From assembly GCA_018650165.1 (NCBI GenBank), contig JABIGM010000038.1, forward strand, positions 1-32,054: a stretch of 32,054 bases of DNA, in the 5' to 3' direction. Numbering within the stretch: the first letter of the stretch is position 1; each line of letters begins with the position of its first letter. Shown piece after piece: positions 4,198 to 26,296 of the stretch. The DNA comes from Methanobacteriota archaeon. Its GTDB lineage: Archaea; Thermoplasmatota; Poseidoniia; Poseidoniales; Poseidoniaceae. The translations under genes and the position numbers were made by a program. Under the pieces are notes generated by a model. It was not told the origin of the DNA. It worked only from the letters and a program-made list of their open reading frames with translations, and ran no database searches.

Positions 4198-4294
4198 ACT
4201 GACTCGTGTGTGCATGAAGGGTTTGATAGTTGTGTTATCCGGTTAGGCAGAAAAGAGGAGGGTTCATGTCCTTCGACATTATGCCCGGCCTGCA

Positions 4295-5494
4295 ATGGCC
4301 CGAGATTACATAGCGCGCGACCCTCGAACCGGTCGCCCCCTCAATGTAGGTAATACCCGTTCTAAGACTAAGCGAAGCGAAGTCAAAGAGGGCCCCTGGA
4401 TGGTAATTCCGCAACAAGCAGTCATTCCATTAGCTACAGGACAAATCGAATCTTATCGAGTTGGTTGGAAGGAAAAGGATTACCAAATGAACCAACTCGA
4501 TGGGATCAAGGCACTATCCATTCTTTCTGGAGTGCTGGCGCATGATGGCCATGCAATCCTCCTCAAAAGTTTGATGGACAACGAACCAGAAATCAGAATT
4601 GCGGCATTATTCTCACTCCCATCAGTTGCTGAAACATGTCCTGATGAATTATTCGACCATCTGTCTGTACTATTGGATGACAGCGACGCATCGGTACGAA
4701 AGGCCGCAAGTGATTGTCTAAAGAACGTAGCACCAATCTTCCCATCAGCCACAGAGGGGACACTTGCTTTCGAATTACGGCACGAAATACGTTCTCGTCG
4801 TGATGCTGCATTCTCGGGTTTAGGTGGCCTTTGTCGAACATGGCCTGAAGTTGCTTGTGATCATATTGATGAATTATTACAGGAAGAAAATTTGGAACTG
4901 CGAAGAAAAGCAGCTGGATTACTACGCAGGGTTTTGGGAAAGGGTGGAGCTGCAGCCTGGGATTTAATTGGCTGGGCACTTAGTGACATGGATGTTGAAA
5001 CACGGCGTCAGGCATCATCGTGTCTCGTTCCTTTAGCGCATAGGGAACAGAGAATCGCAACCATACTGGCAGAAAGAGCAATTCTTGATTCGGATTCGAA
5101 GGTTATGCTTGCAGCAATTCGATGTATAGAAGTTCTAGATACTGATAACGGTCGTGCAAGAGAACTTGTATTATCTGGATGTACCCACAAGGATGTCAAT
5201 GTCCGTTTGGCTTGTGTTAAGATATTGCCTAGATTGATGGGAGATGAAATTTTGCGTAACCACTGCAATTCTTTGTTACGTGATGAAAAGGATGAACGTG
5301 TCATATCTGAATTACATCAGTTGTCATTCGATGCTCAGATTGAGGGTACTGAAGCGCAAAAGAATGCCTACTTGGCTCCGTCACCTAGCGTGCCGCAAAT
5401 AGACTTGGAAATAGCCGAATCACAGGGCAAAACCGTTGGACTGGAAGACCTTGAGCCTCCAGTCAAGGAAGATGACAAGCCGCGGCATGGTTAA
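4295..5494 (+). CDS. HEAT-repeat protein
   Basis: 399-aa ORF with recurring HEAT-like helices (EPEIRIAALFSL, DASVRKAASDCL, NLELRRKAAGLL, DVETRRQASSCL, DVNVRLACVKIL); divergent from the Kelch gene. Confidence 0.85.
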   Translation: MARDYIARDPRTGRPLNVGNTRSKTKRSEVKEGPWMVIPQQAVIPLATGQIESYRVGWKEKDYQMNQLDGIKALSILSGVLAHDGHAILLKSLMDNEPEIRIAALFSLPSVAETCPDELFDHLSVLLDDSDASVRKAASDCLKNVAPIFPSATEGTLAFELRHEIRSRRDAAFSGLGGLCRTWPEVACDHIDELLQEENLELRRKAAGLLRRVLGKGGAAAWDLIGWALSDMDVETRRQASSCLVPLAHREQRIATILAERAILDSDSKVMLAAIRCIEVLDTDNGRARELVLSGCTHKDVNVRLACVKILPRLMGDEILRNHCNSLLRDEKDERVISELHQLSFDAQIEGTEAQKNAYLAPSPSVPQIDLEIAESQGKTVGLEDLEPPVKEDDKPRHG

Positions 5495-5536
5495 GAAGGG
5501 TGTGCTGGTCGGCGAATCGCTCAAGGAGTTGTTATC

Positions 5537-5752
5537 ATGACTGATGAACCATTCAATGACAAAGAGAAGCAGTTTAATGACATGTGGGAAGGAGTAACTC
5601 CAAACGGTATTAATCGTACAAAGTCACTCAAATTCCGCCAGTATATCTTTGAGCATGTTCGCCAGATGCAGCGTCCTCTCACTAAGGAAAACGCCCTAAA
5701 ATATTGGGTTGGTATTCTCAAGGCTGAGGCTAAGGATAGCGACAACTTCTGA
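5537..5752 (+). CDS. Small hypothetical protein (71 aa)
   Basis: ATG preceded by AAGGAG at 5522-5527; fills the gap between two co-oriented genes; normal globular composition. Confidence 0.7.
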   Translation: MTDEPFNDKEKQFNDMWEGVTPNGINRTKSLKFRQYIFEHVRQMQRPLTKENALKYWVGILKAEAKDSDNF

Positions 5753-5800
5753 TCGTGAAGAGGGTCACTGACCCGTCCCGGTGGCCCATATTGGGAAGGG

Positions 5801-7219
5801 ATGGAACGAGGGACTCGCATGTTTACAACAACCACATTCTCTTCATGGGATTTAAAATCAGAGATTAAGGACGGTCTAGCTAGTATTGGTTGGGAGTTCG
5901 CAACACAAGTTCAAACAGAAACAATTCCACTTGCACTTTCGGGTAAAGATGTGATTGGCCAAGCAAGAACTGGCTCAGGTAAAACTGCAGCATTTGGTTT
6001 GCCAACAATGAATGCTTGCCAAACAACGGGAGAACTCCAAGCATTGATTTTAACCCCAACAAGAGAATTAGCCAATCAAGTCGCAGAAGAGTTATCCGCG
6101 ATTCAGGGTAATGCTGGACTGATTATTCAGACAGTTTATGGTGGAACTGATTTGGAAAAGCAAGCCCGCTCACTAAAGAGTGGTGTTGACATTATTGTGG
6201 GAACTCCTGGCCGAGTAATGGATATGACTAACCGTGGCCATATCGATTTGGCTAAGCCGGGTTTCTTTGTACTCGATGAGGCAGACCGTATGCTCGACAT
6301 GGGATTTTTCCCAGATATTATGTGGGTAATTGAAAGAATGACCAGTCGTTCTCAAACACTACTTTTCTCTGCAACTTTCCCTCAGGAAATTATTGATGCT
6401 GCAAATGAGTTCATGAATGAACCAGAATTTGTTTTGACAAATACCGAAAAACTTGACATCCCTCCGATTGACCAATACAGTGTTCGAATTGGAAGAGCCA
6501 ACAAGTTGTGGGTAGTCGGAAGATTACTTACTCGGATGAGCGATGAGGACCAAACTATTATTTTCGCAAATACCAAGCGGATGGTAGATTTGACCGTTCA
6601 GAAACTCAAGAAGAACCGATTTGATGCTGATGGAATTCACGGTGACCTTTCACAGAATCAGAGAGAGAAGATAATCGCCAATTTCAAAGAAGGTAATTCA
6701 CGAATACTTGTTGCAACAGATGTTGCAGCAAGAGGAATCGACGTTGACGGAATCACTCTTGTAATCAATTATGATGTCCCTGATGATGTTGATAGTTATG
6801 TCCACCGAATTGGAAGAACAGGCCGAATTGGACGCAAAGGAGAAGCATGGGTCCTTGTTGGACGAAATGATATCCCACAACTCAACAAGATAATAGCAAC
6901 ACATTCACTTGATATCGTTGCAGCAGAAGCTCCTGACCTGCCAGAAGGCGTTGATAGAGAACCTGTTCGCAAAGTAGAAGACAATTCAGAAGCAGCAGAT
7001 GTTTTCGGCATGGTTCCTATTATGATTGCAACAACATCGATGTCTAAATTTGCGATTGTTGATGAGATCACCTCCTCTTTGAATTGTAATGAATTGTCGG
7101 TTGGAGATATTGTAATCAACGACGATTTTACAATCGTTGAGGTGCACAATAAACATGCATCTTTGGCAGTACGTTCATTCAATGCAAAGGATATAGTGGC
7201 ATCAATTATTGAGTCTTGA
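5801..7219 (+). CDS. DEAD-box ATP-dependent RNA helicase (DeaD/CsdA-like, probable C-terminal DbpA-type RNA-binding domain)
   Basis: Q motif (ATQVQ), GSGKT, PTRELA, TPGR, LDEAD, SAT, ARGID, HRIGRTGR. True start may be the ATG at 5819. Confidence 0.95.
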   Translation: MERGTRMFTTTTFSSWDLKSEIKDGLASIGWEFATQVQTETIPLALSGKDVIGQARTGSGKTAAFGLPTMNACQTTGELQALILTPTRELANQVAEELSAIQGNAGLIIQTVYGGTDLEKQARSLKSGVDIIVGTPGRVMDMTNRGHIDLAKPGFFVLDEADRMLDMGFFPDIMWVIERMTSRSQTLLFSATFPQEIIDAANEFMNEPEFVLTNTEKLDIPPIDQYSVRIGRANKLWVVGRLLTRMSDEDQTIIFANTKRMVDLTVQKLKKNRFDADGIHGDLSQNQREKIIANFKEGNSRILVATDVAARGIDVDGITLVINYDVPDDVDSYVHRIGRTGRIGRKGEAWVLVGRNDIPQLNKIIATHSLDIVAAEAPDLPEGVDREPVRKVEDNSEAADVFGMVPIMIATTSMSKFAIVDEITSSLNCNELSVGDIVINDDFTIVEVHNKHASLAVRSFNAKDIVASIIES

Positions 7220-11284: not shown

Positions 11285-12397
11285 CTAAAGATAGTAATCA
11301 GGTTGCAAAGGCATTCCTGGCTCAACAGCGTACTGGTCAAAGTCCTCTATGCCTTCTTCTCGTAAAACCGATTCATCGGTGTGGAACTGTCCAGTAAATT
11401 CACTTGATTTACTCATTATCACGAATGCAGCATCGCCAACTATTCTTGGAATTCTACTACGTCTGACCATTTCAGCTCCACCAAGTGCCTCGTTGTATCT
11501 AACTGCGGCAGTATCAATTGTAGTGGCAGGCCAAAGGCCGTTTACAGATATTCCATCGCTTGATAATTCCTCTGCAAGACCCAATACAAGCATCGACATT
11601 GAGAATTTAGAGATTGTATAGGCTACAGTTCCCTTATACCACTTTGAATCCAATGAAATTGGCGGACAAATCAGTAATAATCGGCCGTTATCACTCTTGC
11701 GTAGGTGTGGTAATGCCGCTTGGCACAGCGCAAATGATGCACGGATATTTACCTCGTGGACAAGATCAAATCTCTTCATTGGAGTTTCATCAAACGGTGC
11801 AATAAATAACGCACCAGCATTGCAAATGACAGCATCAATTCCACCAAATGCATCAACACCTATCTGGACTGCAGCAATCACATCCTCATCATTGCGAACA
11901 TCACAAACCGCTGCTACTGCTTTGCCACCTACAGATTCAACCATTTCGGCGGTTTCATTCAGAGAGCCTTTCCCGTCTTCATCATCAAGTGTACGTCCAA
12001 GAAGAACAAGGTTTGCACCTTCTTCTGCGAAGCGTAGTGCCATTGCTCTCCCAAGTCCTCGACTGGACCCACTGATTAGCACAGTACGCCCAGCCCATGA
12101 TTCGATATCTGATATTTTTTCAGAACGCTGCATTAATTCATCGACAATGTCAGAGTATTCTCCCATTGCCTCTTCAGAGCCCTTACCTTTCTGTTTTTTC
12201 CAGGCTCGATATTTTGCTATTGCGACAATTCCTCCACTTACGGGGAGTCCTCCGGTTACATCACCTTCAGTAGATTGTTTATACAGAGAATATAGCAATA
12301 GCATAGTCTTGTCATCAGGTTTGCTACCAATGTTCATTACATCCTTTGCAGATTTCAAAAATCGCTTTTCGTTACCCAATCCATCAACTCCTTTCAT
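11285..12397 (-). CDS. Fusion of an N-terminal acyl-CoA-binding protein (ACBP) domain and an HSDL2-like short-chain dehydrogenase
   Basis: Residues ~13-88: LYSLYKQSTEGD...AKYRAWKKQKGKGSEEAMGEY (ACBP signature). Then TVLISGSSRGLG, CNAG, YTISK (YxxxK) and NGLWPATTIDTAAV (HSDL2-like). Confidence 0.9.
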   Translation of the reverse strand: MKGVDGLGNEKRFLKSAKDVMNIGSKPDDKTMLLLYSLYKQSTEGDVTGGLPVSGGIVAIAKYRAWKKQKGKGSEEAMGEYSDIVDELMQRSEKISDIESWAGRTVLISGSSRGLGRAMALRFAEEGANLVLLGRTLDDEDGKGSLNETAEMVESVGGKAVAAVCDVRNDEDVIAAVQIGVDAFGGIDAVICNAGALFIAPFDETPMKRFDLVHEVNIRASFALCQAALPHLRKSDNGRLLLICPPISLDSKWYKGTVAYTISKFSMSMLVLGLAEELSSDGISVNGLWPATTIDTAAVRYNEALGGAEMVRRSRIPRIVGDAAFVIMSKSSEFTGQFHTDESVLREEGIEDFDQYAVEPGMPLQPDYYL

Positions 12398-13412
12398 TCA
12401 ACCAATTCTCGAGAATATTCCTTCTATTCGGTGAATCTAAAGTGGTAGTATGCTCCAAATCAGAAACCAGATGAAACTGGTTTTCCTCATCTTCAGGAAT
12501 ATGCTTTAAAATCAAATTGTAGTGCTTTCTACCAAGTGTGTTATCATTTTTTGATTGAAGTGTGAGCACTGGTATTTTTGGTATCCCAATCTGTGGTAGT
12601 TTTGCGTTCCAAAATCTAATTGGTAAATCAGGATGTATTCTTTCCATCTCAGTGCGAATAATTCGGCGAATCAAAGGGCGACCAAAATTCCACATCGAAC
12701 CTACTCGCATTTTAACAATCAATGGTATTGATGTTACAGATGATTCCAAAATCAAAGAATCGAGTTGATCTGCCCACCATCCCGATTTGTGACTAGACAG
12801 TCTTAGGGCAAGAAATCCCCCCATCGAATGCCCGTAGAAATGCACCCGTGGTAATTCCTTGTACTCAGCAAGGATGGTATCTAAAAAGGCCTCGATGTCT
12901 GCTGCTACTTTCAGTAATGTCCAATCTTGATTTAGATCACAGCTACCATGCCCTCTCATGTCGATACCGGCTACATCAAATCCTTGATTGCTAAGATGGG
13001 ATATTCGGCTTTCTGCCCACGACATAGAAGATGAATATCCATGCATGTACAAAATCAAACCTTTCGATTTACCTTTTGCTGAAATGAAATATCCTATTGG
13101 TTCTTCGCCCCCCCATCCTGTGAATTTTATGTGGCGCCAATTTGGATTGATGTTGTTTTCTCCAACCCTTGGATGAGCTAGGAAAAATGCTGACAATACC
13201 TTTGCTTCCAAAGCCAAGTAGGTTGCATTCAATGCAATAGCAATAGCAATTGTCCAGAATAGAATATTCACCAGAATTTGACTCTCCTGACTCCACAATA
13301 TCAACTCAATGACGATTAGGGCCCAGAATATAGTCCAAGGCCATGTCATTTTCCATTGCAAACTTTTGGAATATGCAGCCGCACCTTTGCTCATTGGATA
13401 CTGTGACTTCAT
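12384..13412 (-). CDS. Membrane-anchored alpha/beta hydrolase (lipase/esterase)
   Basis: Two N-terminal TMs, HGYSS oxyanion motif, GHSMGG nucleophile elbow, candidate Asp (QSKND) and His (LEH). Confidence 0.9.
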   Translation of the reverse strand: MKSQYPMSKGAAAYSKSLQWKMTWPWTIFWALIVIELILWSQESQILVNILFWTIAIAIALNATYLALEAKVLSAFFLAHPRVGENNINPNWRHIKFTGWGGEEPIGYFISAKGKSKGLILYMHGYSSSMSWAESRISHLSNQGFDVAGIDMRGHGSCDLNQDWTLLKVAADIEAFLDTILAEYKELPRVHFYGHSMGGFLALRLSSHKSGWWADQLDSLILESSVTSIPLIVKMRVGSMWNFGRPLIRRIIRTEMERIHPDLPIRFWNAKLPQIGIPKIPVLTLQSKNDNTLGRKHYNLILKHIPEDEENQFHLVSDLEHTTTLDSPNRRNILENWLNERS

Positions 13413-15196
13413 CAGAAGGCAGCCTCCGGGTATGACATTAGGTGCTTGTGTCCTGCGAGGATTTTAGCGGCAAGTCCAACATTGTCTGGATGAATTTCTG
13501 CAAAGAATACTCTTGCGCTTGCAAGTTTGGCTTCATGAAATTCAGTTGAGGTTCCTTTAGTCTTAGCATCTAGACAAACTCGCGCCATTTTTGCCCATAA
13601 GTAGGCTAGTAAGGTATTTCCGAAGTATGTACAATAATCGGTAGCACCTGCTGCCAAGAAGTGTGGATTACCTGCGCCTTCTGCCATTAGGAGAAGTGTT
13701 AGTTGTTGTAATCCTTTTACACTTTTATGCAGTGGCTTATTGAATTCTTCCATTTCCTCAATAGCACGACTTTCTTCTATGAATTCAAGTAATGGCCACA
13801 TCAAATGACGAAGATTCTGACCGAAATTTTGGGTGACTTTTCGGCCTACTAAATCGAGTGCTTGTATTCCGTTAGTTCCTTCCCAAATGGGAGCAATTCT
13901 TACATCACGATAGAATTGTTCAACTCCGTATTCAGAACAATAACCAGCCCCTCCCATAACCTGGATAGAAAGCGATGCACTCTGACACCCAACATCTGTC
14001 GAATATGCCTTCATGACAGGAGTGAGTAATGCGATTAGTGAAGTAGCTTGTTTTTTGGTTTCTCCATCGCCTCTTTTCATCTCATCGAGTAGTATCCCAA
14101 TCCATGTTCCTAGGGCTCTAGTGCCTTCACAGTTAACTTTGGCCTTTAGCAACATTCTACGGACATCTGGATGAACTAGAATGTTATCTGCAGGAGCATC
14201 TAGATCTTTCATACCACGTAGGTCTCTTCCTTGACGTCTTTCTAGAGACCAGGCTAATGCATTTTGATATGCAATTTCACCCAGTCCAAGACCCATCATT
14301 CCAGTGGCAAGTCTTTCTCTGTTCATCATCTCGAACATCAGCGCCATACCTGTATTCTCTTCACCTACTAGCCAGCCTTTACTAGAATCGAAATTAAGTA
14401 CACAGGTTGGTGAACCATGGAGGCCCATTTTGTCTTCAATTCCTGAAATTGATGTACCGTTTTTTTCACTGGAAAGATCATCACCTTCACTGAGGTATTT
14501 TGGTACAAGAAATAGCGAGATACCTTTGGAACCCTCTGGAGCATCTGGTAGTTTCGCTAGCACCATATGAACGATATTATCACTCAAATCATGGTCGCCT
14601 GCTGTAATGAATATCTTTGTACCTGTTATCGTATATGTTCCATCTTCTTGAGGGATTGCTTTGGTCTTGATCAGCCCAAGGTCGGTACCACAATGTGGCT
14701 CGGTAAGGCACATTGTGCCACACCATTCTCCGCTACCAATTTTGGCAGCATAAAGGTCGATATTTTCCTGTGAAGCATGACCACTTATTATGTCGTAAAC
14801 ACCCAGGCTCAATGCGGCTACAACGGAGATTGCCATATTGCAAGAAATCGCAGGCTCATCCATTGCATTACGGAAGAAGAGTGGCAATTCCATACCTCCA
14901 TGTTCCTCTTTGCAAACCGCCTGTAGCCAGCCGGAATCAACAGTTTGCTTCCATGCCTCTTTGAAACCAGGTGGTGAGAAAACTTCTCCATTCTTCAATT
15001 GAGAACCAAATTTATCACCATCAATGTTTGATGGCTTCCACACATCAATAACGAATTGTGACCACTCTTCAGTCATCATATCCAAGGCCTCTCTGTCCAT
15101 ATTATCATACTCTAAGCGATTACACACTTCAACAACATCGAATACTTCGTGGAATAGGAAATTGTAGTCGTCCAAAGGAGCCTTGTATACAGTCAT
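13412..15196 (-). CDS. Acyl-CoA dehydrogenase (~595-aa FadE5/DmdC-like family)
   Basis: YKAPLDDYNF N-terminus, MCLTEPHCGTDLG, GTKIFIT, EDKMGLHGSPTC, IWEGTNGIQ (catalytic Glu). GGAGG at 15203-15208 favours the ATG at 15196 over 15202. Confidence 0.95.
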   Translation of the reverse strand: MTVYKAPLDDYNFLFHEVFDVVEVCNRLEYDNMDREALDMMTEEWSQFVIDVWKPSNIDGDKFGSQLKNGEVFSPPGFKEAWKQTVDSGWLQAVCKEEHGGMELPLFFRNAMDEPAISCNMAISVVAALSLGVYDIISGHASQENIDLYAAKIGSGEWCGTMCLTEPHCGTDLGLIKTKAIPQEDGTYTITGTKIFITAGDHDLSDNIVHMVLAKLPDAPEGSKGISLFLVPKYLSEGDDLSSEKNGTSISGIEDKMGLHGSPTCVLNFDSSKGWLVGEENTGMALMFEMMNRERLATGMMGLGLGEIAYQNALAWSLERRQGRDLRGMKDLDAPADNILVHPDVRRMLLKAKVNCEGTRALGTWIGILLDEMKRGDGETKKQATSLIALLTPVMKAYSTDVGCQSASLSIQVMGGAGYCSEYGVEQFYRDVRIAPIWEGTNGIQALDLVGRKVTQNFGQNLRHLMWPLLEFIEESRAIEEMEEFNKPLHKSVKGLQQLTLLLMAEGAGNPHFLAAGATDYCTYFGNTLLAYLWAKMARVCLDAKTKGTSTEFHEAKLASARVFFAEIHPDNVGLAAKILAGHKHLMSYPEAAF

Positions 15197-15209
15197 AAGC
15201 ATCCCTCCT

Positions 15210-17600
15210 TCAGTTCCTCAATGGTTTGCCTTTGCTCAGCATATGTTCCATTCTAGCCAGGCTTAGTTCATTTCGAGCCAGTGTCGAAATTGCTTTTCTT
15301 TCGAGCGCAAGAATGTCGTCCTCACTCAATTCCTTTGTATGGTCACATTCTCCTCCGGTCAGAACTTTTGCAAGTTCACTGATAACCGTAATGTCATGAG
15401 GGGTAGCATGACCGGCAATAGCAAGATCGTTCAACGCCATGGCTAGTGCGGATTTTCCAGAAGGCCCAGGTAGGTGGTAGACATGAGGTACAGGTGGGCA
15501 ATAATCTTCGGCTAGTTCTAGCAAGTATGATTTAGCATTGGACAAAACATGATTACGGTTCATAGTGATACGGTCGCTTCCTCGAAGGTAACCTAGATCT
15601 TTGGCCTGTTGAGCAGATTTAGCAATCTTAGCCATACCTATATTTTCGAATACCATCATGGTTGCAGCCATTGGCCCCAATCCTACGAGTTTCTCTGTAG
15701 TGACTCGTGCAAGCATCTCTTTACAACCTCCCCAGGCGGGGATAATACCTACTCCGGTTTCAACCAATCCGATATATGATTCTGAATGTGCAACAATACC
15801 ATCGGAGTGCAGAAGAATTTCACATCCACCTCCAAGGCACATTCCAGATGCTGCCGAAACAACAGGGACTTCGGCATATTTTAGAGCTTGATATGTGTCT
15901 TGACCTAGAGCAATAAAGTCCTCCAATGTGCCCCATGCTCCAAGGTTTGCAGCAAATAATGCAAGTCCAAGATTTGCACCTGCACAGAAATTGGCAGAAT
16001 CGTTGGCGATTAGTATTCCCTTCCAACCATCGCTTTCTGCAATGTCTACAGCAGCGAGGAGTATTTCCATGATAAATGGATCTAAAGCATTCATTTTTGA
16101 GTGGAATTCCACTAAAAGGACTCCATCATTGGCATCCCAAATACTGGCCGAAGCATTTCTTCTAATCGCCTCACCTCGTCTACGTTTGATGTCTGCTACA
16201 GTAGTATCTTGAGCGCCTTTTAGAATTTGATTGTGTCCTCCAGTGAAATCCAGTCGAGTTATTTCGGCTTCCTCTATCCCGTAGAACGAACCGTGCTCTG
16301 CCGCAAGTGACAGGAATGGCGGAATTACAATATTAGATGATTTCATTTCTTTGACAAGCCAATCGATACCAATGGAATCCATCATTTCAAAAGGTCCCTT
16401 CTTCCAACTATATCCTACCTTCATCGCATCATCAATCGCATGAATATCTTCACTGACAGTCGGTACGAGTGAGGCAGCATAAGCAAACGTATCAAGCAAT
16501 ATTTCTTTGACGAAAGTAGCACCCTTGTCCGGGTGAGTCATAAGGCGCTTGAGTCCTTGCCGACCGACTTTAGCAGAAGAAAAAGCAGCCTTGCGATTAG
16601 CGGTTTGATATGCTCCGTCGACGAGACTTCTTGCTTCTTTAGTGCGCTTACCACCTTCGGTATTGAGTCTGAAGAATCCACCTTTACCCTTGCGCCCAGT
16701 ATATCCATCAGAGATCATTTTCTCAATGACATCTACTCCCTTTCCTGCTATGGTGTGCAGTGGGTCCTCAGGTGGCAGATTATCCACCATGCTCTGGACA
16801 ACGGCGGGAATAATATCGATTCCAACTAGGTCCATCAATGCGAAAACACCAGTCTTTGGTAAGCCAATAGGACGGCCAAGCATAGCATCTGCCTGTTCCA
16901 CGGTGAAGCCATAATCTAATGTGGCTGCAATGGAACGTTGGACGAAGTATATTCCAAGACGATTGCCTATGAAGCCCGGAGTGTCATTGCAAAGAATTAC
17001 TTTCTTTCCGAGTCTCTCGGATGCGAAGATATTCATTTTGTGGAATAAGTCCTCTTCCACTTCTTCTCCGACAACTAATTCCAGTAAAGGGAGATAGCGA
17101 GGGGGATTGAAAAAGTGTGTAATTAGGAATCTTGAAGCTAAAGATGAACTCATCCCCTTGACAAGAGACGATCTTGGAATTGTTGATGTGTTTGAAGATA
17201 AAATAGCACTTTTTGAAAGATGTTTTTCTATATTGGAATAGATGGTGTGCTTGATGTCAAGGCGTTCCACTACAACTTCCACTACCCAGTCTCTATCTTT
17301 GAGGAGATGCAAATCATCCTCAAGATTAACGGGGTGTATTCTTTGGGAATTTGATGGGTGCATAAGAGGTTCAGGGTTACTTTTTTTCATTCGTAATATT
17401 GCTTCTCGAGCAACAATAGACCTATCAGTGGCACCTTTTGGGACGATGTCGTATAGTAGAACATCGCAACCTGCATTTGCACAATGGGCGGCAATACCTG
17501 CGCCCATGATTCCACTTCCAATAACTGCAACTTTGTTGATAGAACCATTGCTCTTCAATTCGGTTTTAATCACAGGAGATTGGATGTCAAGTACCATCAT
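15210..17600 (-). CDS. fadN: 3-hydroxyacyl-CoA dehydrogenase / enoyl-CoA hydratase multifunctional enzyme (FadN-like domain order)
   Basis: VAVIGSGIMGAG, SSNTST, HFFNPPRYL, NDTPGFIGNR; C-terminal crotonase motifs FCAGANL, LGGGCE, GLVETGVGIIPAWGG. Confidence 0.93.
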   Translation of the reverse strand: MMVLDIQSPVIKTELKSNGSINKVAVIGSGIMGAGIAAHCANAGCDVLLYDIVPKGATDRSIVAREAILRMKKSNPEPLMHPSNSQRIHPVNLEDDLHLLKDRDWVVEVVVERLDIKHTIYSNIEKHLSKSAILSSNTSTIPRSSLVKGMSSSLASRFLITHFFNPPRYLPLLELVVGEEVEEDLFHKMNIFASERLGKKVILCNDTPGFIGNRLGIYFVQRSIAATLDYGFTVEQADAMLGRPIGLPKTGVFALMDLVGIDIIPAVVQSMVDNLPPEDPLHTIAGKGVDVIEKMISDGYTGRKGKGGFFRLNTEGGKRTKEARSLVDGAYQTANRKAAFSSAKVGRQGLKRLMTHPDKGATFVKEILLDTFAYAASLVPTVSEDIHAIDDAMKVGYSWKKGPFEMMDSIGIDWLVKEMKSSNIVIPPFLSLAAEHGSFYGIEEAEITRLDFTGGHNQILKGAQDTTVADIKRRRGEAIRRNASASIWDANDGVLLVEFHSKMNALDPFIMEILLAAVDIAESDGWKGILIANDSANFCAGANLGLALFAANLGAWGTLEDFIALGQDTYQALKYAEVPVVSAASGMCLGGGCEILLHSDGIVAHSESYIGLVETGVGIIPAWGGCKEMLARVTTEKLVGLGPMAATMMVFENIGMAKIAKSAQQAKDLGYLRGSDRITMNRNHVLSNAKSYLLELAEDYCPPVPHVYHLPGPSGKSALAMALNDLAIAGHATPHDITVISELAKVLTGGECDHTKELSEDDILALERKAISTLARNELSLARMEHMLSKGKPLRN

Positions 17601-18721
17601 TCAACCCTCCTGAGTACTGTGGCAATTCCCTGGCCACCGCCTATGCACATGGTTGCAAGTGCAATATTCGCTTTATTTCGTGTGAGTATTGTTACAGCAC
17701 GTCCAACAATTCTTGCACCGCTGGCTCCAAGTGGGTGGCCAAGTGCGAGAGCACCCCCGTCGATGTTGACCTTGGAGGTGTCTATTCCAAGTTCTTCAAT
17801 AACTGCAAGTGATTGTGCTGAAAATGCCTCATTAAGTTCGATTACATCGATATCTTCCAGGCCGACACCGGCTCTAGCCAGTGCTTTCTGAGATGCACCA
17901 ACTGGACCTATGCCCATAATTTCGGGAGAGCAACCTGACACAGCAGTTGATTCTATAGATGCTAGTATCTTTAATCCTTGTGTGCGTGCAAATTCATCGC
18001 TACAAACGAGGACAAAGGCAGCACCATCTGTGAGCGGTGAAGAAGTTCCAGCGGTTACGCTACCATCCGCCTTGAATGCAGGCTTCAGTCTAGCAAGGGA
18101 ACTTGTATTGGAATCGGGTCTAATACAACCATCAGTTGAGACCACTCCATCAGTAGTGGTTATTGGAATTATGACATCAGTGAAGTCAGCATTCGCTGCC
18201 TTGCGGTGGCTTTCAACAGCAAATTCTTCTTGATTTTTCCGTTCAATTTCATAGATTGCAGCAAGATTCTCAGCAGTCAATCCCATGTTTGTGAAAGCAT
18301 CTGGCATTTCTGCTGCGAGTCTTGGATTAGGCATTGGATTAAAACCTGACATTGGTATTCTTGTCATAGATTCAACCCCTCCTGCGATAAATGCATCTCC
18401 CGAGCCCATAGCGATTCTACCGGCGGCATCATGAATCGCTTGCATTGAAGACCCACAAAACCGATTGACAGTAACCCCGGCGACTGTGTGTGGTAACTCG
18501 GTGAGGAAGGATAGCATTCTTCCCAAATTGAAGCCCTGTTCAGCTTCAGGAAAAGCGCAACCTAGTATCAAGTCTTCAATCAGATTTGGATCAATTCCAG
18601 TTTTTTCAATCAATCCCTTAACGACTTCAGCCGCTATGTCATCAGGTCGAGAACCTGCCAAATCTCCTTTTTTGGCGGGGGTGAATGGGGACCTATAGTA
18701 TCCACAAATTACGGCTGGCAT
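17597..18721 (-). CDS. fadA: Acetyl-CoA C-acyltransferase (3-ketoacyl-CoA thiolase)
   Basis: NRFCGSS (active-site Cys), NEAF, GHPLGASG, MCIGGGQG; ATGA overlap with the fadN-like gene. Confidence 0.95.
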   Translation of the reverse strand: MPAVICGYYRSPFTPAKKGDLAGSRPDDIAAEVVKGLIEKTGIDPNLIEDLILGCAFPEAEQGFNLGRMLSFLTELPHTVAGVTVNRFCGSSMQAIHDAAGRIAMGSGDAFIAGGVESMTRIPMSGFNPMPNPRLAAEMPDAFTNMGLTAENLAAIYEIERKNQEEFAVESHRKAANADFTDVIIPITTTDGVVSTDGCIRPDSNTSSLARLKPAFKADGSVTAGTSSPLTDGAAFVLVCSDEFARTQGLKILASIESTAVSGCSPEIMGIGPVGASQKALARAGVGLEDIDVIELNEAFSAQSLAVIEELGIDTSKVNIDGGALALGHPLGASGARIVGRAVTILTRNKANIALATMCIGGGQGIATVLRRVE

Positions 18722-18742
18722 AATATTGTCACGGCGGTGTAA

Positions 18743-18750
18743 TAATTAAA
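18743..18750 (-). promoter_or_regulatory. Putative TATA box of the beta-oxidation operon
   Basis: TTTAATTA on the minus strand 22-29 nt upstream of the thiolase ATG at 18721. Confidence 0.4.
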
Positions 18751-18849
18751 CCGGCAAGTATCATCGGCAACACCTGATATAAATTCAGACAGTTGGTGCT
18801 TTAGGAGTGATAACCCAAACCACACCTTTGTGAACCAAGACCTCTTGCG

Positions 18850-19353
18850 ATGTCTATGGCCAAGATACTGATGATTACCGCTACCTCGGATAATAATCTC
18901 GCTTTAGCAGAAAAGTTCGCAGATGCTGCAAGTGGTATGGGACACGAATCTGATATTGTTAATCTCGCGGAATTGGATATGCCAATGTTCACCGTTGCAA
19001 GATCTAAGGAACTTGATGTAGTTCCAGGAATGGCCGCCCTCAAAGAGGCTATGTCGTCTGCTGATTCTTGGATGATTGTAGCTCCTGAATACAACGGTTC
19101 TATGCCACCAACTCTCAACAATGCAGTAGCATGGCTTAGTACAGAATGGCAAGACTTCCGTGCATTGTTCAATCGTCGTAAAGTTGGACTTGCAACCCAC
19201 AGTGGTGGCGGTGGCGAGCATGTAATCATGGCAATGCGCCAGATGTTCTCTTATCTTGGGTGCAATGTTATCGGGCGAAAATTAGTTTCCAACAAGGATA
19301 AAGAAGCAAATCCAGAGACTATCGAGGATATGCTTAACCAGCTTGCTAACTGA
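18850..19353 (+). CDS. NAD(P)H-dependent FMN reductase (flavodoxin-like fold)
   Basis: IVAPEYNGSMPPTLNNAVAWLS, KVGLATHSGGGG. Confidence 0.92.
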   Translation: MSMAKILMITATSDNNLALAEKFADAASGMGHESDIVNLAELDMPMFTVARSKELDVVPGMAALKEAMSSADSWMIVAPEYNGSMPPTLNNAVAWLSTEWQDFRALFNRRKVGLATHSGGGGEHVIMAMRQMFSYLGCNVIGRKLVSNKDKEANPETIEDMLNQLAN

Positions 19354-20685: not shown

Positions 20686-20919
20686 ACACTATCCATCGTC
20701 GGTCAACATATTAAGGCCTGTTTCACACTAAGAGAAAATTCGCATACCATCAACTAGAACAAGATAGCATTGAGCATCCAACCCGATGGCGTGCCCATTC
20801 AGGTCTCTTCTGGTACCACTTGTCTTCATAGGTTTAATGCTCTTAGTAAGGGGTTTTGAGGAATTGAAGGGTCAGTATCTAATCGGAAAGATTCAAACCA
20901 TTTAACCCCTCGAAGTGTT

Positions 20920-22323
20920 ATGAATAAATTAGTTAGTTTGCTATTTTGTGTATTAATCGCAACTGCACCACTCGCCGGTTGTTTAGACGATGAAATCGAT
21001 CCTGCAGAAGAAATCGATTTACCAGTTATTGATCCTTCCTTTGATGAAACTAATGGAACTAACAACAGTAACGGAACAGGTACTCCAATAGATACTAACA
21101 ATGGAACCAACAACACTGGTAACAACAATACTGGAAACAATAATTCTGGTAACAATAACACTGGTAACAACAATACTGGTAACAACAATACTGGTAACAA
21201 CAATACTGGTAACAACAATACTGGTAACAACAATACTGGTAACAATAACACAGGGAGCAACAATACTGGTAACAATACGATTGGTAACAATACCAATACT
21301 GGCAACAATACTGGTAACAATACCAACAACGGCAATAATACCACTGGCAATAGCACATCAGGCAATACTACAGGTGGAAATGTAACCGGTGGCAATACAA
21401 CGGAATGTGGCGGAGATATTACCGGAACCTTCGCCTATTCCTTTACAGCATTTGACTACACTAATCATCCTGATTACACGAATTTAGGGGGAATCGAAAT
21501 CGATTGTGATTTGAATGTCCTTTATGGGTATGCCTGGGATGAAACTAATTCGGAGGAGGTGTTTGTTTCTATCGACCCGAGTACAGGTTTGGTGTCATAT
21601 CTAGCCACAATTCCAACAATTGAAATGGTTACACATTCTTCAACCTATGGTGAAGGGGAATATTTCGCTGTAATGCGTGATGGACAGGGTGTAGTAAATC
21701 TCATTCAGGTTTCGACACTCAATGGTAATTTAGTGTCAGTTACACCTTTTGATTATACCAATGCGCCTGATTTAGAGCAGGTTGGTGGAATTGAATATGA
21801 TGAGGTAAACGATGTGATCTATGGATATGCATTTGACAGTACAAACGATGATGCTGTTTCAGTTTCGATTGAACCAAGTACTGGATTGATAACAGAACTA
21901 GGCGTTATTTCCGCTGGACCAACTTCGGTAACAGCTTTGTCTACTACCTTTGATGGCACTAATTACTACATTGGAATTAGAGATTCTCAGAGCGAACGTT
22001 GGCTTGGTATAGTTTCAGTAACTGGAACTTTTGGTGTAACTCTTTCAGAACTTTCAAATCCTACATCAGCAAACATTTTGTCATCAGTTGCCGGATTTGA
22101 AGTCGAATCAAACACTGGCTTCGTTTATGGATATGGATGGGATTCCTCAAATAACGAAGAAATATTTGTTGAATATGACCCGGCAACTGGGACTACGACT
22201 TCGATAGGAGTTCTTACTGGAATTACTCTTACAACTGCAACTGCAACATATTTTACAGGTAATTTTTATGCCATTATGGCAGACTCATCCAAGACACAAT
22301 ACCTAGTTCACATACAATTTTGA
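20920..22323 (+). CDS. Lipoprotein with Asn-rich (GNNNT)n linker and a probable six-bladed beta-propeller
   Basis: Lipobox PLAGC (Cys21); low-complexity N/G/T region; three ~95-aa internal repeats (GGIE.D...LYGYAWD....E.FVSIDPSTG). Confidence 0.88.
   Translation: MNKLVSLLFCVLIATAPLAGCLDDEIDPAEEIDLPVIDPSFDETNGTNNSNGTGTPIDTNNGTNNTGNNNTGNNNSGNNNTGNNNTGNNNTGNNNTGNNNTGNNNTGNNNTGSNNTGNNTIGNNTNTGNNTGNNTNNGNNTTGNSTSGNTTGGNVTGGNTTECGGDITGTFAYSFTAFDYTNHPDYTNLGGIEIDCDLNVLYGYAWDETNSEEVFVSIDPSTGLVSYLATIPTIEMVTHSSTYGEGEYFAVMRDGQGVVNLIQVSTLNGNLVSVTPFDYTNAPDLEQVGGIEYDEVNDVIYGYAFDSTNDDAVSVSIEPSTGLITELGVISAGPTSVTALSTTFDGTNYYIGIRDSQSERWLGIVSVTGTFGVTLSELSNPTSANILSSVAGFEVESNTGFVYGYGWDSSNNEEIFVEYDPATGTTTSIGVLTGITLTTATATYFTGNFYAIMADSSKTQYLVHIQF
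21118..21267 (+). repeat. 15-bp tandem repeat (GGTAACAACAATACT), 10 units, coding GNNNT
   Basis: Five perfect adjacent copies at 21163-21237, another perfect copy at 21118-21132 and variant units between and after. Confidence 0.97.
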
Positions 22324-22363
22324 GATTGTAATACATTGAACGCATGTTTGAGTGCGACAATAA

Positions 22364-22648
22364 TCAGTATTTTGCTAATGCGTTTTTGAACTCATTAGCA
22401 TCGACTCGATTGTCGTTATTGTCATCTAATATTTTGATAATTTTAGAGATTTGGCCAAGTGACATATTATTCCCAGTGATATCTTTAATTCCATTATACA
22501 ATTCTGGACCGCTAATTTTTCCATCACTATCAGCATCGATTTTATCAAAGATTTCATCGAGTGTCATTTCGCTTTGCTTTAGCAATCCGGCTAATGCTTC
22601 AATTGCTTTCTCGATGCTTAGTTCATCACTACCTGTATCTTCGGCCAT
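22364..22648 (-). CDS. Small two-EF-hand (calmodulin-lobe-like) Ca2+-binding protein, ~94 aa
   Basis: EF loops IDADSDGKISGPEL and LDDNNDNRVDANEF in helix-loop-helix context. Start reassigned to the ATG at 22648 (MAEDTG) because GAGGGG lies just upstream. Confidence 0.88.
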   Translation of the reverse strand: MAEDTGSDELSIEKAIEALAGLLKQSEMTLDEIFDKIDADSDGKISGPELYNGIKDITGNNMSLGQISKIIKILDDNNDNRVDANEFKNALAKY

Positions 22649-22741
22649 GCCCCCTCTAAGCCCCTTGCGGACAAAACATTTCCCCACAAGCAATTTATTT
22701 TTTGGAGGCAAGTTGATAACATGCCGAGAACAGGACAAAAT

Positions 22742-23359
22742 ATGAACTCCACACTAGAGCACATGCTCTCACGTGAAACAATAATTGTTAAACAAGATAC
22801 TGAGTTAACTAACATTATTTTGGGATTTGATGCAGCTAACCGCTATGTCCTTTTTGATCCAAGTGGTGAAGTCTTGGGCAATGCTGCCGAAGAAGGAAGT
22901 GGAGTCGGCGGTTGGTTAATGCGCCAGTTTTTGCAAAGCAGACGCCCATGTACGCTCCATATCTATGATACACAGGGCCAAGAAATAACCACTGGAAAGA
23001 AGCCATTTAAATTCTTATTCTCTGAAATGAATACAATAGTTAATCAACAAAATATCGGGTGTGCCCGTCGCCGTTTCAACATATTGAATCGCAAATATTC
23101 TATAGGTGCATCAGGTTCTTCTGGATTTGAAATAACAAGTAGTATCTTCCAGTTCGGAAAGCATTCTTTCGACATAACAAAGAACGGTCTAGTAGTTGCT
23201 AAAATCACGAAAAAATTCGAAGGTATGTTGAAAATGGCATTTACCCAAGCAGATACATTTTCAATTACATTTCATGACAAAAACTTGACACTGGAGGAGC
23301 GTTGTGTGCTCCTTCTAACTCTCTTCCTCATAGATTACGATGTATTTGAGCAAAGATGA
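22742..23359 (+). CDS. Phospholipid scramblase / LURP-one (tubby-like) family protein
   Basis: IIVKQ..EL..IILGFDAANRY, LMRQFL...RP, AKITKKFEG...AFTQADTFSITF, LLLTLFLIDY..FE. The start is uncertain (22721, 22742 or 22763). Confidence 0.85.
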   Translation: MNSTLEHMLSRETIIVKQDTELTNIILGFDAANRYVLFDPSGEVLGNAAEEGSGVGGWLMRQFLQSRRPCTLHIYDTQGQEITTGKKPFKFLFSEMNTIVNQQNIGCARRRFNILNRKYSIGASGSSGFEITSSIFQFGKHSFDITKNGLVVAKITKKFEGMLKMAFTQADTFSITFHDKNLTLEERCVLLLTLFLIDYDVFEQR

Positions 23360-23377
23360 TTCCGCTCAAAGTTGGAA

Positions 23378-23510
23378 CGGACGTGTAATTGCAAACGGGC
23401 GACCCCTCGCCCACTCCAGAAACGTCCGCCCCGGGTCTGGAGCAGGTTTAGGACGAAATCGACTGATATTAATCCATGGATGGCATTCTAAATGTGTCAT
23501 CACGTTTGCA
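23378..23510. ncRNA. Candidate structured RNA / cis-element (unassigned)
   Basis: GC-rich intergenic patch with several perfect stems (see findings); no known family recognised. Confidence 0.3.
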
Positions 23511-23554
23511 TAATCAATACAAGGTATGAAAACTAAACCGATTTTGGTACATAC

Positions 23555-26296
23555 ATGGCAACTAAGCGCGTCAGTATTATTCTTCTCGTAATCCTAGTTG
23601 CATATCTTCCATCTCCTGTTGTGGCAGATGGCGATACTCAAGTCGTTTCTCAGTTTGGAGTAAGTTTCGAAGAGGTTGTAATTGCCGATTCTTCCGATGC
23701 TCTCTCCGATCCAAGAGATCTTGAATTCCATCCCGGTAGGGCTAACGAACTTTGGATTGCAAATCGGGCAACTGATAGTATGACCATAGTCCACAATACC
23801 GGGCTTGTAAACCAAACTTCAGAAAACCGTCATGATGCTTATGGCAACCATTTTCTTGAAGAGGTAAGTGCAATTTCTTTCGGGACATATCATCCTGAAT
23901 TTGATTGGCAGTGGGGTTCAGCCCAAGAATCTGCTAATACTTACTGTGGACAAGGTAGTCCAAATAATTTCATGGGACCCACACTTTGGCCATCATCACT
24001 AAGTCACTATGCAGTGGAGCATCAAAGCGACCAATACCTCGGTAGTCACATCGACATGAACCATGAATCCCCGTACGGGATGGGGATTGCCCATGATTCA
24101 GGTAATTCATACTGGTACAATGATGGTCATAATGGTGAATTGGTTTACTATGATTTTCAAGAAGACCATGATACTGGTATGGACGACCATTCCGATGGTA
24201 TAGTCCGACGATATTCCGATGTCCAGTTAACCCATTCTTATGGTACGCCGGGGCACATGGTACTCGACAAAAACTCTGGTATACTCTACATTTCAGACCC
24301 AGGTTCAAGCCGAGTCGTTTGGGTAAATACCGATGATACAACTTACAACACAGTGAACATAATGAGCGATTCATCTAGACTTGAACCACTAGCAGAGTAT
24401 TCCCGCATCACTGGAATTGAATGGGGTGTTCTTGATACAGGCCTAAGTAAGCCTTCTGGAATCGCCTTGGAGGGCGATCAGTTATTTGTTTCATTGAAAG
24501 GCAATGGTCGTATTATCGCCTATGATTTGAGCACAAACGGAAAGAGTGCAACTGAAGCTGGCTCAATTCAAACATCAGCATCTGCCATAATGGGCTTAGA
24601 AATAGGTCCAAATGGGCATATTTACTATGTTGACAATGGAGCTGATGAAGTAGTCAGAATAGATCCCAATAACGATGGGGATGATGATGGAGTTGTTGAC
24701 CAGGATGACAATTGCCCTCTAATCGCAAATCCGAGTCAGGCAAACCATGACAACGATTTACAGGGTGATGTTTGCGATGAAGATGATGATAACGACGGTG
24801 TGCTAGATAATCTAGACAACTGTGCAACTGGAGATTTGGCTTGGTCGCAATCCTCTGCTACCGATCATGACATGGATGGTTGTAGAGATTCTTCAGAAGA
24901 CTATGATGATGACAATGATGGTGTCCTAGACATTGGAGATGGTTGCTCTACAGGTGAACTAGCCTGGACTTCAACAACTGATCTGGACTACGATGGAGAT
25001 GGCTGTAAAGATGCTACAGAAGATTATGATGATGATAATGACAACATTTGTGATTCAAGTTGGAATGAGGATTGGGGATGTATGCTCTCAACATTGGATG
25101 TTGACTTCTGTCCCGAAAGCCATCCAACGTTCTTTTCAGTATTATCTAACGATGCAGACCAAGATGGCTGTGAAGATAGAAATGAAGACAAAGATGATGA
25201 CAATGATGGTTTCTTAGATGGCCAAGATGATTGTCCAATTGAAACTGGTTTTAGCGATACTGGAAGAATATTTGGATGTCCGGATTCTGACGGTGATGGC
25301 TACGCAAATACAATTGATGTATTCCCTGACGAGCCTAGTCAATGGTCGGATGTAGATGAGGATGGCTTTGGTGATCAATCAGACGGCTTAGATGGAGATG
25401 ATTGCCCTGGTGTTTATGGAACCTCGAATCAAGACCGCACTGGTTGCTTGGATTCAGATGGAGATGGGTACTCAAATCCAGATTCAAATTGGGATACTAC
25501 GCTAGGAGCCGACGCATTTTCGACTGATATTACACAGCACCTAGACGGTGATGGAGATGGATATGGTGACAATATGGATGGGTTCCAAGCTGATTCCTGT
25601 TCAGAGATTGCAGGAACTTCGAACCAGGACCGTTTTGGCTGTTTGGATTCAGATGGTGATGGCTGGTCCGATGAAGGAGATATGTTGCCTCTCGACCCCA
25701 CCCAGCATTCTGATGATGATGGTGATGGCTATGGTGACTCATTACTTGGAAATACTCCTGATAGTTGTCCAAGTGTGTATGGGCTTTCTAGCGAGCAGCG
25801 CTACGGTTGTCTAGATTCAGATAGTGATGGTTGGGATGATGAATTTGATGCATTCCCTGACAATATCAAGTTCTGGTCAGATACAGATGGAGACTCACAT
25901 CCGGACCAACAAGACACTGAACTTTCAGACGACTGCCCTGATGAGGCAGGTGATTCATATGAAGACCGAATCGGTTGTCCAGATTCGGATGGAGATGGTT
26001 GGTCTGACAAAGCTGATTCATATCCCGATGACGCCTCACGCCATCTTGAATCGGATAGCACTTCTCTCATACTGATAGTAGTTGGAATTGTAGTTGTTGG
26101 AATTGCTCTAGGTTTACTTTTCTTGAATCGAAGAAAGGGCGGCGATATGATTCAGAATGTTGATTATAATCCAACAATAATGACTCCACAAGTCCCAGTT
26201 CAGGCTGGGCCACCATTGCCTCCAGAAGGATTACCTGTTGGTTGGACTATGGAACAGTGGGCTTGGTATGGTGAAGATTATCTCAAGAATCGCTAA
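23555..26296 (+). CDS. Membrane-anchored surface protein: His/Asp-rich beta-propeller, many thrombospondin type-3-like Ca2+-binding repeats, TM, Pro/Trp cytoplasmic tail
   Basis: Signal peptide; propeller-type motifs (PRDLEFHP, PYGMGIAHD, PSGIALEG, IMGLEIGPNG); repeated DxDxDGxxDxxDxC(P) units over ~24670-26040; TM LILIVVGIVVVGIALGLLFL followed by NRRK. Confidence 0.9.
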   Translation: MATKRVSIILLVILVAYLPSPVVADGDTQVVSQFGVSFEEVVIADSSDALSDPRDLEFHPGRANELWIANRATDSMTIVHNTGLVNQTSENRHDAYGNHFLEEVSAISFGTYHPEFDWQWGSAQESANTYCGQGSPNNFMGPTLWPSSLSHYAVEHQSDQYLGSHIDMNHESPYGMGIAHDSGNSYWYNDGHNGELVYYDFQEDHDTGMDDHSDGIVRRYSDVQLTHSYGTPGHMVLDKNSGILYISDPGSSRVVWVNTDDTTYNTVNIMSDSSRLEPLAEYSRITGIEWGVLDTGLSKPSGIALEGDQLFVSLKGNGRIIAYDLSTNGKSATEAGSIQTSASAIMGLEIGPNGHIYYVDNGADEVVRIDPNNDGDDDGVVDQDDNCPLIANPSQANHDNDLQGDVCDEDDDNDGVLDNLDNCATGDLAWSQSSATDHDMDGCRDSSEDYDDDNDGVLDIGDGCSTGELAWTSTTDLDYDGDGCKDATEDYDDDNDNICDSSWNEDWGCMLSTLDVDFCPESHPTFFSVLSNDADQDGCEDRNEDKDDDNDGFLDGQDDCPIETGFSDTGRIFGCPDSDGDGYANTIDVFPDEPSQWSDVDEDGFGDQSDGLDGDDCPGVYGTSNQDRTGCLDSDGDGYSNPDSNWDTTLGADAFSTDITQHLDGDGDGYGDNMDGFQADSCSEIAGTSNQDRFGCLDSDGDGWSDEGDMLPLDPTQHSDDDGDGYGDSLLGNTPDSCPSVYGLSSEQRYGCLDSDSDGWDDEFDAFPDNIKFWSDTDGDSHPDQQDTELSDDCPDEAGDSYEDRIGCPDSDGDGWSDKADSYPDDASRHLESDSTSLILIVVGIVVVGIALGLLFLNRRKGGDMIQNVDYNPTIMTPQVPVQAGPPLPPEGLPVGWTMEQWAWYGEDYLKNR

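Follow-up and report, generated by a model that had tools for sequence, protein, structure and literature searches.

A small EF-hand gene beside a scramblase-family gene in marine group II archaea: a lineage-limited pairing viewed next to bacterial EF-loop/scramblase fusions

The stretch of archaeal DNA analysed here (the window, 32,054 nucleotides) carries a gene for a small EF-hand protein head to head with a gene of the phospholipid scramblase family, and the question raised by this locus is whether the two form a Ca2+-regulated membrane module, as proposed in a preliminary description made from the sequence alone, or are neighbours without a functional tie. The genome of the window comprises 1.75 Mb, is 80% complete and has one scramblase gene, and the related contigs belong nearly all to MAGs of Poseidoniales (marine group II).

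The EF-hand gene lies at 22364..22648 on the minus strand and encodes 94 amino acids. Its start is likely the ATG at 22648, giving the N-terminus MAEDTG, which is also found in the EF-hand proteins of two related loci (L064 and L065); with MAEDTG kept as the N-terminus in relatives, a 124-aa frame extended to a TTG (to 22738) is improbable. The protein matches EF-hand_7 (PF13499) with an E value of 6.9e-14 and 52.4 bits (cut-off 30) and, in two stretches, EF-hand_1 (PF00036) with 46.1 bits against a cut-off of 25.4. Both 12-residue loops, DADSDGKISGPE and DDNNDNRVDANE, are canonical: ligands occupy positions 1, 3, 5, and 12, position 6 is Gly or Asn, and position 8 is hydrophobic, which bears out the earlier reading of a stand-alone protein with two EF-hands. 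These positions vary little or not at all across 15 members of an archaeal small EF-hand family that is defined here by alignment A3 alone, the invariant residues being D38, D42, G43, I45, G47, P48, E49, D75, D79, N80, and R81; this family is common in the window's Poseidoniales genus. The window protein is acidic and, on reading its sequence, free of a signal peptide, TM segment, or other hydrophobic segment, and it is by these features a cytosolic protein with a predicted pair of Ca2+-binding loops. An EF-hand pair close to this family also occurs in a membrane protein encoded in genome G000 (contig C45, 1-1422, minus strand; locus L004), which has two N-terminal zinc ribbons, long acidic repeats, and TM segments and has homologues of 570-690 aa in most genomes of the genus.

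The scramblase-family gene (PF03803) lies at 22742..23359 on the plus strand and encodes 205 amino acids, its assignment resting on Pfam, an AF2 model, and structural matches. An alternative 212-aa reading from an ATG at 22721 is possible, but the start is probably 22742, leaving a spacer of 93 bp, because the ATG at 22721 is not kept in L065 and every homologue begins at the equivalent of M8. The two genes of the preliminary description are thus both present, with starts at 22648 and 22742 preferred to those given there. Which of two related families the protein belongs to had been left for a profile search, and the answer is PF03803, matched at E 3.6e-42 with 144.6 bits against a cut-off of 25.4 and over profile positions 9-221 of 221, whereas no PF04525 match was reported by Pfam at E <= 0.1; both families are listed in the precomputed annotations of the protein's relatives. 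The AF2 model (pLDDT 80, pTM 0.83) consists of 12 strands and a C-terminal helix at residues 184-202, with an extra helix and a Gly-rich segment at residues 54-67. It superimposes on Tubby (1i7e_A) with Z 12.9 and rmsd 3.1 over 155 aligned residues and on At5g01750 (2q4m_A) with Z 11.5 and rmsd 3.0 over 144; Foldseek likewise ranked the Tubby and At5g01750 folds at the top, yet with E values above 1e-3. As modelled, the scramblase-like protein is a soluble, Tubby-like 12-stranded barrel round a C-terminal hydrophobic helix, a fold from which a role in peripheral membrane or lipid-headgroup binding, and putatively in scrambling, may be surmised.

The preliminary description had also placed a segment of this protein opposite a segment of human PLSCR1. 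With the eukaryote-type family member P0070 standing in for the human protein this position holds, QADTFSITFHDK of the window protein being aligned to NADNFGIQFPKE of P0070, and residues 172-177 form the last strand of the AF2 model. The window residues at positions 1, 3, and 12 of the proposed Ca2+ segment are Q169, D171, and K180. D171 alone is invariant in the animal-type Ca2+ segment, position 1 is Q in 50 of 50 aligned sequences, and the acidic pattern of the animal PLSCR1 type at positions 1, 3, and 12 is absent from the window protein. Neither clustered Cys residues nor a proline-rich N-terminal tail are visible in its sequence, which begins about 10 residues ahead of the first barrel strand, and Cys clusters occur in the eukaryote-type members P0070 and P0094 of the same alignment. 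No archaeal scramblase of 360-2000 aa that would represent a longer, fused form turned up in a search, a result that is weak as evidence.

The divergent spacer (22649..22741, strand not applicable; defined from alignment A2 and the sequence) is 93 bp long, in agreement with the head-to-head arrangement across less than 100 bp described earlier. It has a single central A/T-rich block at about 22703-22714, and the blocks GACAAAACATTTCCCCACAA and CAAGTTGATAAC are invariant in the three loci aligned in A2 (the window, L064, and L065). The spacer may be the promoter region for the gene pair. Contigs from RNA libraries of two studies (metatranscriptome) match both genes at 100% identity, covering 22344-22627 for the EF-hand gene and 22768-23466 for the scramblase gene and beyond; no contig bridges the spacer (22628-22767 uncovered) or lies over the flanking surface-protein genes, gaps that prove nothing. 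These contigs are silent on strand, expression level, and co-regulation, and they fit transcription of both the EF-hand and the scramblase gene. Downstream of the scramblase gene, a GC-rich intergenic element (window 23360-23554) is reached by RNA contigs 23217-23466 and 23277-23427, and it may be part of the scramblase transcript, since these contigs run on from the scramblase 3' end; an Rfam scan of 22000-24000 gave nothing meaningful, the element included. In L065 and L124, the scramblase gene is followed by a gene for a small zinc-ribbon membrane protein (144 aa in L124, cut by the contig end in L065), which the window does not have.

The pair is embedded in a block of surface-protein genes with TSP3, LDLa, and transglutaminase domains. 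Pfam finds TSP_3 in a 913-aa neighbour protein and LDL-receptor class A, TSP3_bac, and transglutaminase core domains in further genes, which confirms surface proteins with Ca2+-type repeats as neighbours, as reported earlier. Given that surface proteins of this type flank the pair, the EF-hand gene could belong functionally to the Ca2+-repeat surface-protein block (e.g. through cytosolic Ca2+ buffering or sensing tied to export), with the scramblase gene as an unrelated insertion; genome G211 has the small EF-hand gene, a PQ-loop gene, and the gene for a homologue of the 913-aa TSP3 protein in the same order and without a scramblase gene. On the other hand, the Ca2+ repeats lie outside the cell but no signal peptide is present on the EF-hand protein, and most genomes of the genus keep the EF-hand gene elsewhere, in a consensus block made up of HAD-like (named from sequence only), NERD, small EF-hand, PQ-loop, and glutamine-synthetase-like genes. 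We consider this surface-block explanation highly improbable.

The surface-protein block lies downstream of a fatty-acid beta-oxidation cluster (window 12384-18721, minus strand) that encodes an alpha/beta hydrolase, an acyl-CoA dehydrogenase, a fused 3-hydroxyacyl-CoA dehydrogenase/enoyl-CoA hydratase, and a thiolase. Between this cluster and the pair, a gene for a 467-aa N-rich lipoprotein (window 20920-22323) occupies the place that a SelO-like gene has in L065 and L066, and a 39-aa remnant at window 20753-20869 (minus strand) is 87% identical to the C-terminus of the 507-aa SelO-like protein. It looks as if the lipoprotein gene replaced the SelO-like gene and left the old gene's end behind. 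The idea that the pair had moved as a unit between two contexts was dropped, as the SelO remnant points to one locus with a replaced flank.

How far the pairing extends was assessed from about 120 scramblase loci, in which all ORFs were scanned with a small-EF-hand HMM and the neighbours were clustered. The head-to-head pair occurs only in the window, in L064 (98% scramblase identity) and in L065 and L066 (86-87%), and these represent one locus rather than several contexts. The remaining Poseidoniales scramblase loci, about 100, are spread over about ten further neighbourhoods (about 11 in all), at least five different contexts being found in the window's genus alone, and no adjacent small EF-hand gene was found at any of these other loci. 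The scramblase family itself is present in 8 of 201 genomes of an order-level sample (5 of 10 from the window's genus and 2 of 8 from one genus of another family) and, in a phylum sample of 401 genomes, in the window's genus only; most genomes in the order-level and genus-level samples are without it, and across marine group II archaea the scramblase is an accessory gene of patchy distribution. Nor do the two genes co-occur consistently. No small EF-hand gene was detected in the scramblase-positive genomes G038, G108, and G105 (91, 86, and 84% complete), many genomes show the reverse, and five (G104, G066, G112, G213, and G221) have both genes on separate contigs. The small EF-hand gene is present in about 18 of 31 genomes of the genus, in some of which only was the scramblase tested. 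The notion of a conserved Poseidoniales module is refuted, because adjacency is limited to near relatives and co-occurrence fails; the pairing is real, but it is lineage-limited and facultative and no conserved archaeal module. What remains of the preliminary description is the domains and their divergent layout; a pairing that is not conserved had been named there as a ground for refutation, and its phrase "eukaryote-like signalling unit" is overstated, the family being so patchy in the phylum.

These findings favour, in part, an explanation in which nothing specific couples the two neighbouring genes. A mobile accessory scramblase gene would have landed by a general-purpose EF-hand Ca2+ sensor or buffer within a surface-protein region that is variable, and the youth of the lineage would be the only reason for the persistence of the divergent layout. 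Adjacency confined to relatives at least 86% identical, some 11 neighbourhoods for a patchily distributed gene, inconsistent co-occurrence, and a region in flux, as seen in the exchanged SelO-like gene, are all in its favour. So are the habits of the small EF-hand gene, for which at least 7 of 12 fetched loci place it between a NERD-domain gene and a head-to-head PQ-loop/SemiSWEET-like gene; the small EF-hand protein would have scramblase-independent roles, because a gene for a PQ-loop membrane protein is its frequent head-to-head partner. Three observations run counter to this explanation, namely the situation in G000, a second linkage in other Poseidoniales loci, and a family of bacterial fusion proteins, and we regard mere neighbourhood as quite possible, if somewhat doubtful.

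In G000, the consensus block is present on contig C21 (about 16491-19195), but the EF-hand gene is missing from it and nothing separates the NERD from the PQ-loop gene, so that G000 has a small EF-hand gene only beside its scramblase gene. In the window's lineage, the scramblase gene is thus the head-to-head partner of the sole small EF-hand gene of the genome. Its protein is 42-47% identical to the consensus-site proteins, as against 73-84% for the flanking proteins.

The second linkage is found in L032, L033, L070-L072, and G202, where a small EF-hand gene is followed by a gene for a 765-aa surface protein and then by the scramblase gene, all three in the same orientation and separated by 21 and 30 nt, in an operon-like arrangement. 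The EF-hand protein belongs here to a different subfamily, 41% identical to that of the window. In the scramblase tree, the EF-linked classes A and B fall into one 7-row clade with support 94/94, and the same clade also holds three loci without an EF-hand neighbour. With one small EF-hand gene per 1.75 Mb, the chance of meeting one in a 6.3-kb neighbourhood is about 0.36%; two hits in about 11 classes would then have p of about 7e-4 if independent and about 4% if there was one ancestral linkage, both figures being rough and post hoc. One of these loci, L033 (DLTN01000060.1), is labelled Gemmatimonadales bacterium UBA7835; its scramblase is 62% identical to that of the window, its small EF-hand protein agrees with that of the Poseidoniales contig L032 wherever L032 is readable, and the bin label looks wrong.

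Other candidate links were discarded. A loose EF-loop pattern was dropped, as it marks 79 ORFs and puts 33% of G000 within 3 kb of one, and its matches near scramblase genes (c25, c57, and the extracellular "ELW-x-DGT" repeat proteins, c66) were not counted. A large marine group II clade has the scramblase gene between an HD-domain gene and sodX/sodN, which encode nickel superoxide dismutase and its maturation protease (L049-L056, L100-L122, and similar loci); in class C (about 30 loci), the order is a membrane protein with an N-terminal EF loop, an HD protein, the scramblase, then sodX and sodN. Class C was dropped as a third linkage, as contig C62 of G000 (2272-6373) has the same synteny without a scramblase gene and Pfam skips that EF loop. 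Co-folding of the window scramblase (alignment A4) and EF-hand protein (alignment A3) with two Ca gave a score of 0.00 in both runs, which were made without controls, and weighs neither way.

In bacteria there is a family of fusion proteins of about 300 aa (19 clusters, 38-65% identical) that consist of an N-terminal helix, an EF loop, a linker, and the scramblase domain, and in which the loop YDxDGDGxISGEEW is invariant or nearly so. A search of 1.84 billion representatives returned 3,029 members of the scramblase family at E <= 1e-3. A strict EF loop at residues 28-40 is present in at least eight representatives at the 50% identity level, including the diverged P0065-P0067, and P0061-P0067 are further diverged fusion representatives with a strict EF loop. 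The fused loop scores below the Pfam gathering threshold (21 vs. 25.4 bits, E 2e-4), and the AF2 model of a fusion has a helix-loop-helix at residues 4-56. One fusion protein, annotated as hypothetical, comes from a Desulfobacterales MAG (locus L063), and even in the class of that MAG the fusion is rare, being carried by 2 of 13 scramblase-positive genomes (301 sampled). No strict EF loop was found in the flanks of stand-alone bacterial scramblase loci. This approximately 300-aa family supplies what the Rosetta-stone approach looks for, a fused form in other organisms; because EF-hands are promiscuous fusion partners (PMC7016017), such a fusion is weaker evidence than it would be for rarer domains. 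In many other, apparently bacterial members (P0083, P0117, P0128, P0136, P0156, P0163, P0199, and P0202), reading of the sequences shows the N-terminal place of the EF-hand to be taken by zinc-ribbon modules of the pattern CPxC...C..C.G.W.D..EL. The domain layouts suggest that the barrel may commonly serve as the output domain of proteins that begin with a small module, and the fusion family is arguably a more useful lead than the archaeal pair.

The operon-like arrangement and the bacterial fusions independently support a possible functional coupling of EF-hand and barrel and, together with RNA contigs over both genes, keep the Ca2+ link alive. We therefore lean, tentatively and at just short of an even chance, towards a facultative, lineage-limited Ca2+ link in which the EF-hand would serve in trans as it may in cis in the fusions. 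According to this preferred reading, the EF-hand protein would bind Ca2+ and act in trans on the scramblase-like protein, altering the membrane association or activity of the latter, and the fused N-terminal EF-hand would do likewise in cis in the bacterial subfamily. Prokaryotic barrels are without acidic residues at positions 1 and 12 of the segment called EF-hand-like in the animal proteins, and a separate canonical EF-hand could therefore supply the Ca2+ response. The broader proposition, that prokaryotic barrels of the PLSCR/Tubby fold are recurrently switched by Ca2+ through canonical EF-hands (fused in cis in some bacteria, encoded by a separate neighbouring gene in some marine group II archaea), is rather unlikely.

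The function of the PLSCR family and the action of Ca2+ on it are still unsettled, and a prokaryotic version, with an unmistakable EF-hand, fused or adjoining, as its sensor, would offer a cleaner handle on the Ca2+ response and membrane activity of the fold. If EF-hands do form such a recurrent switch, simple two-part prokaryotic systems could serve to test whether the PLSCR fold depends on Ca2+, a matter long in dispute, and animal PLSCRs could be set directly beside a form in which there is no doubt about the Ca2+ site. For archaeal biology the meaning is more modest, that of an accessory feature of one Poseidoniales lineage and not of a general signalling unit. No description of the pair was found in the searched literature, and the claim that it is new stands to that extent; no paper there joins Poseidoniales and scramblases, the PLSCR1 motif string gave no match, and calmodulin was not found in a PLSCR1 review. 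Prokaryotic members of PF03803/DUF567 were already known (PMC2639001), as were diverse bacterial EF-hand fusions, in a survey without mention of scramblases (PMC7016017).

Among known systems, EfhP of Pseudomonas aeruginosa resembles the window EF-hand protein in being a small protein with two canonical EF-hand loops (PMC9132961), and differs from it in that neither a signal peptide nor a membrane anchor is present in the window protein. The barrel shares its fold with the Tubby C-terminal domain (Z 12.9) and with the plant LOR/DUF567 proteins (PF04525; At5g01750, PDB 1zxu/2q4m; Z 11.5), although its sequence profile puts it in PF03803 and not in PF04525. The bacterial fusions (P0033-P0052 and P0061-P0067) likewise combine a canonical EF loop with a PF03803 barrel and have the FT-x-AD-x-F and C-terminal helix motifs of the window protein; however, their EF-hand is single, N-terminal, and in cis, joined by a disordered or Gly/Ala-rich linker, and their barrels are 27-29% identical to the archaeal one. 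Animal PLSCR proteins have a proline-rich N-terminus and a Cys-rich palmitoylation stretch, and the window protein differs from PLSCR1 in having neither. It is like PLSCR1 in its full-length match to the PF03803 profile and in the F-T-x-A-D-x-F strand and LID-x-D-x-FE helix, which align with the eukaryote-type member, and its modelled Tubby/At5g01750-like barrel with a buried C-terminal helix is the structure that Bateman et al. predicted for the PF03803 family (PMC2639001). The Ca2+ segment proposed for PLSCR1, D273-D284, is acidic at positions 1, 3, and 12 and was held by the same authors to form a strand of the core rather than an EF-hand (PMC2639001). In the window protein, positions 1 and 12 of this segment are Q and K instead of acidic residues, and putative Ca2+ sensing in the archaeal pair would, unlike in PLSCR1, go through a separate protein with canonical EF-hands.
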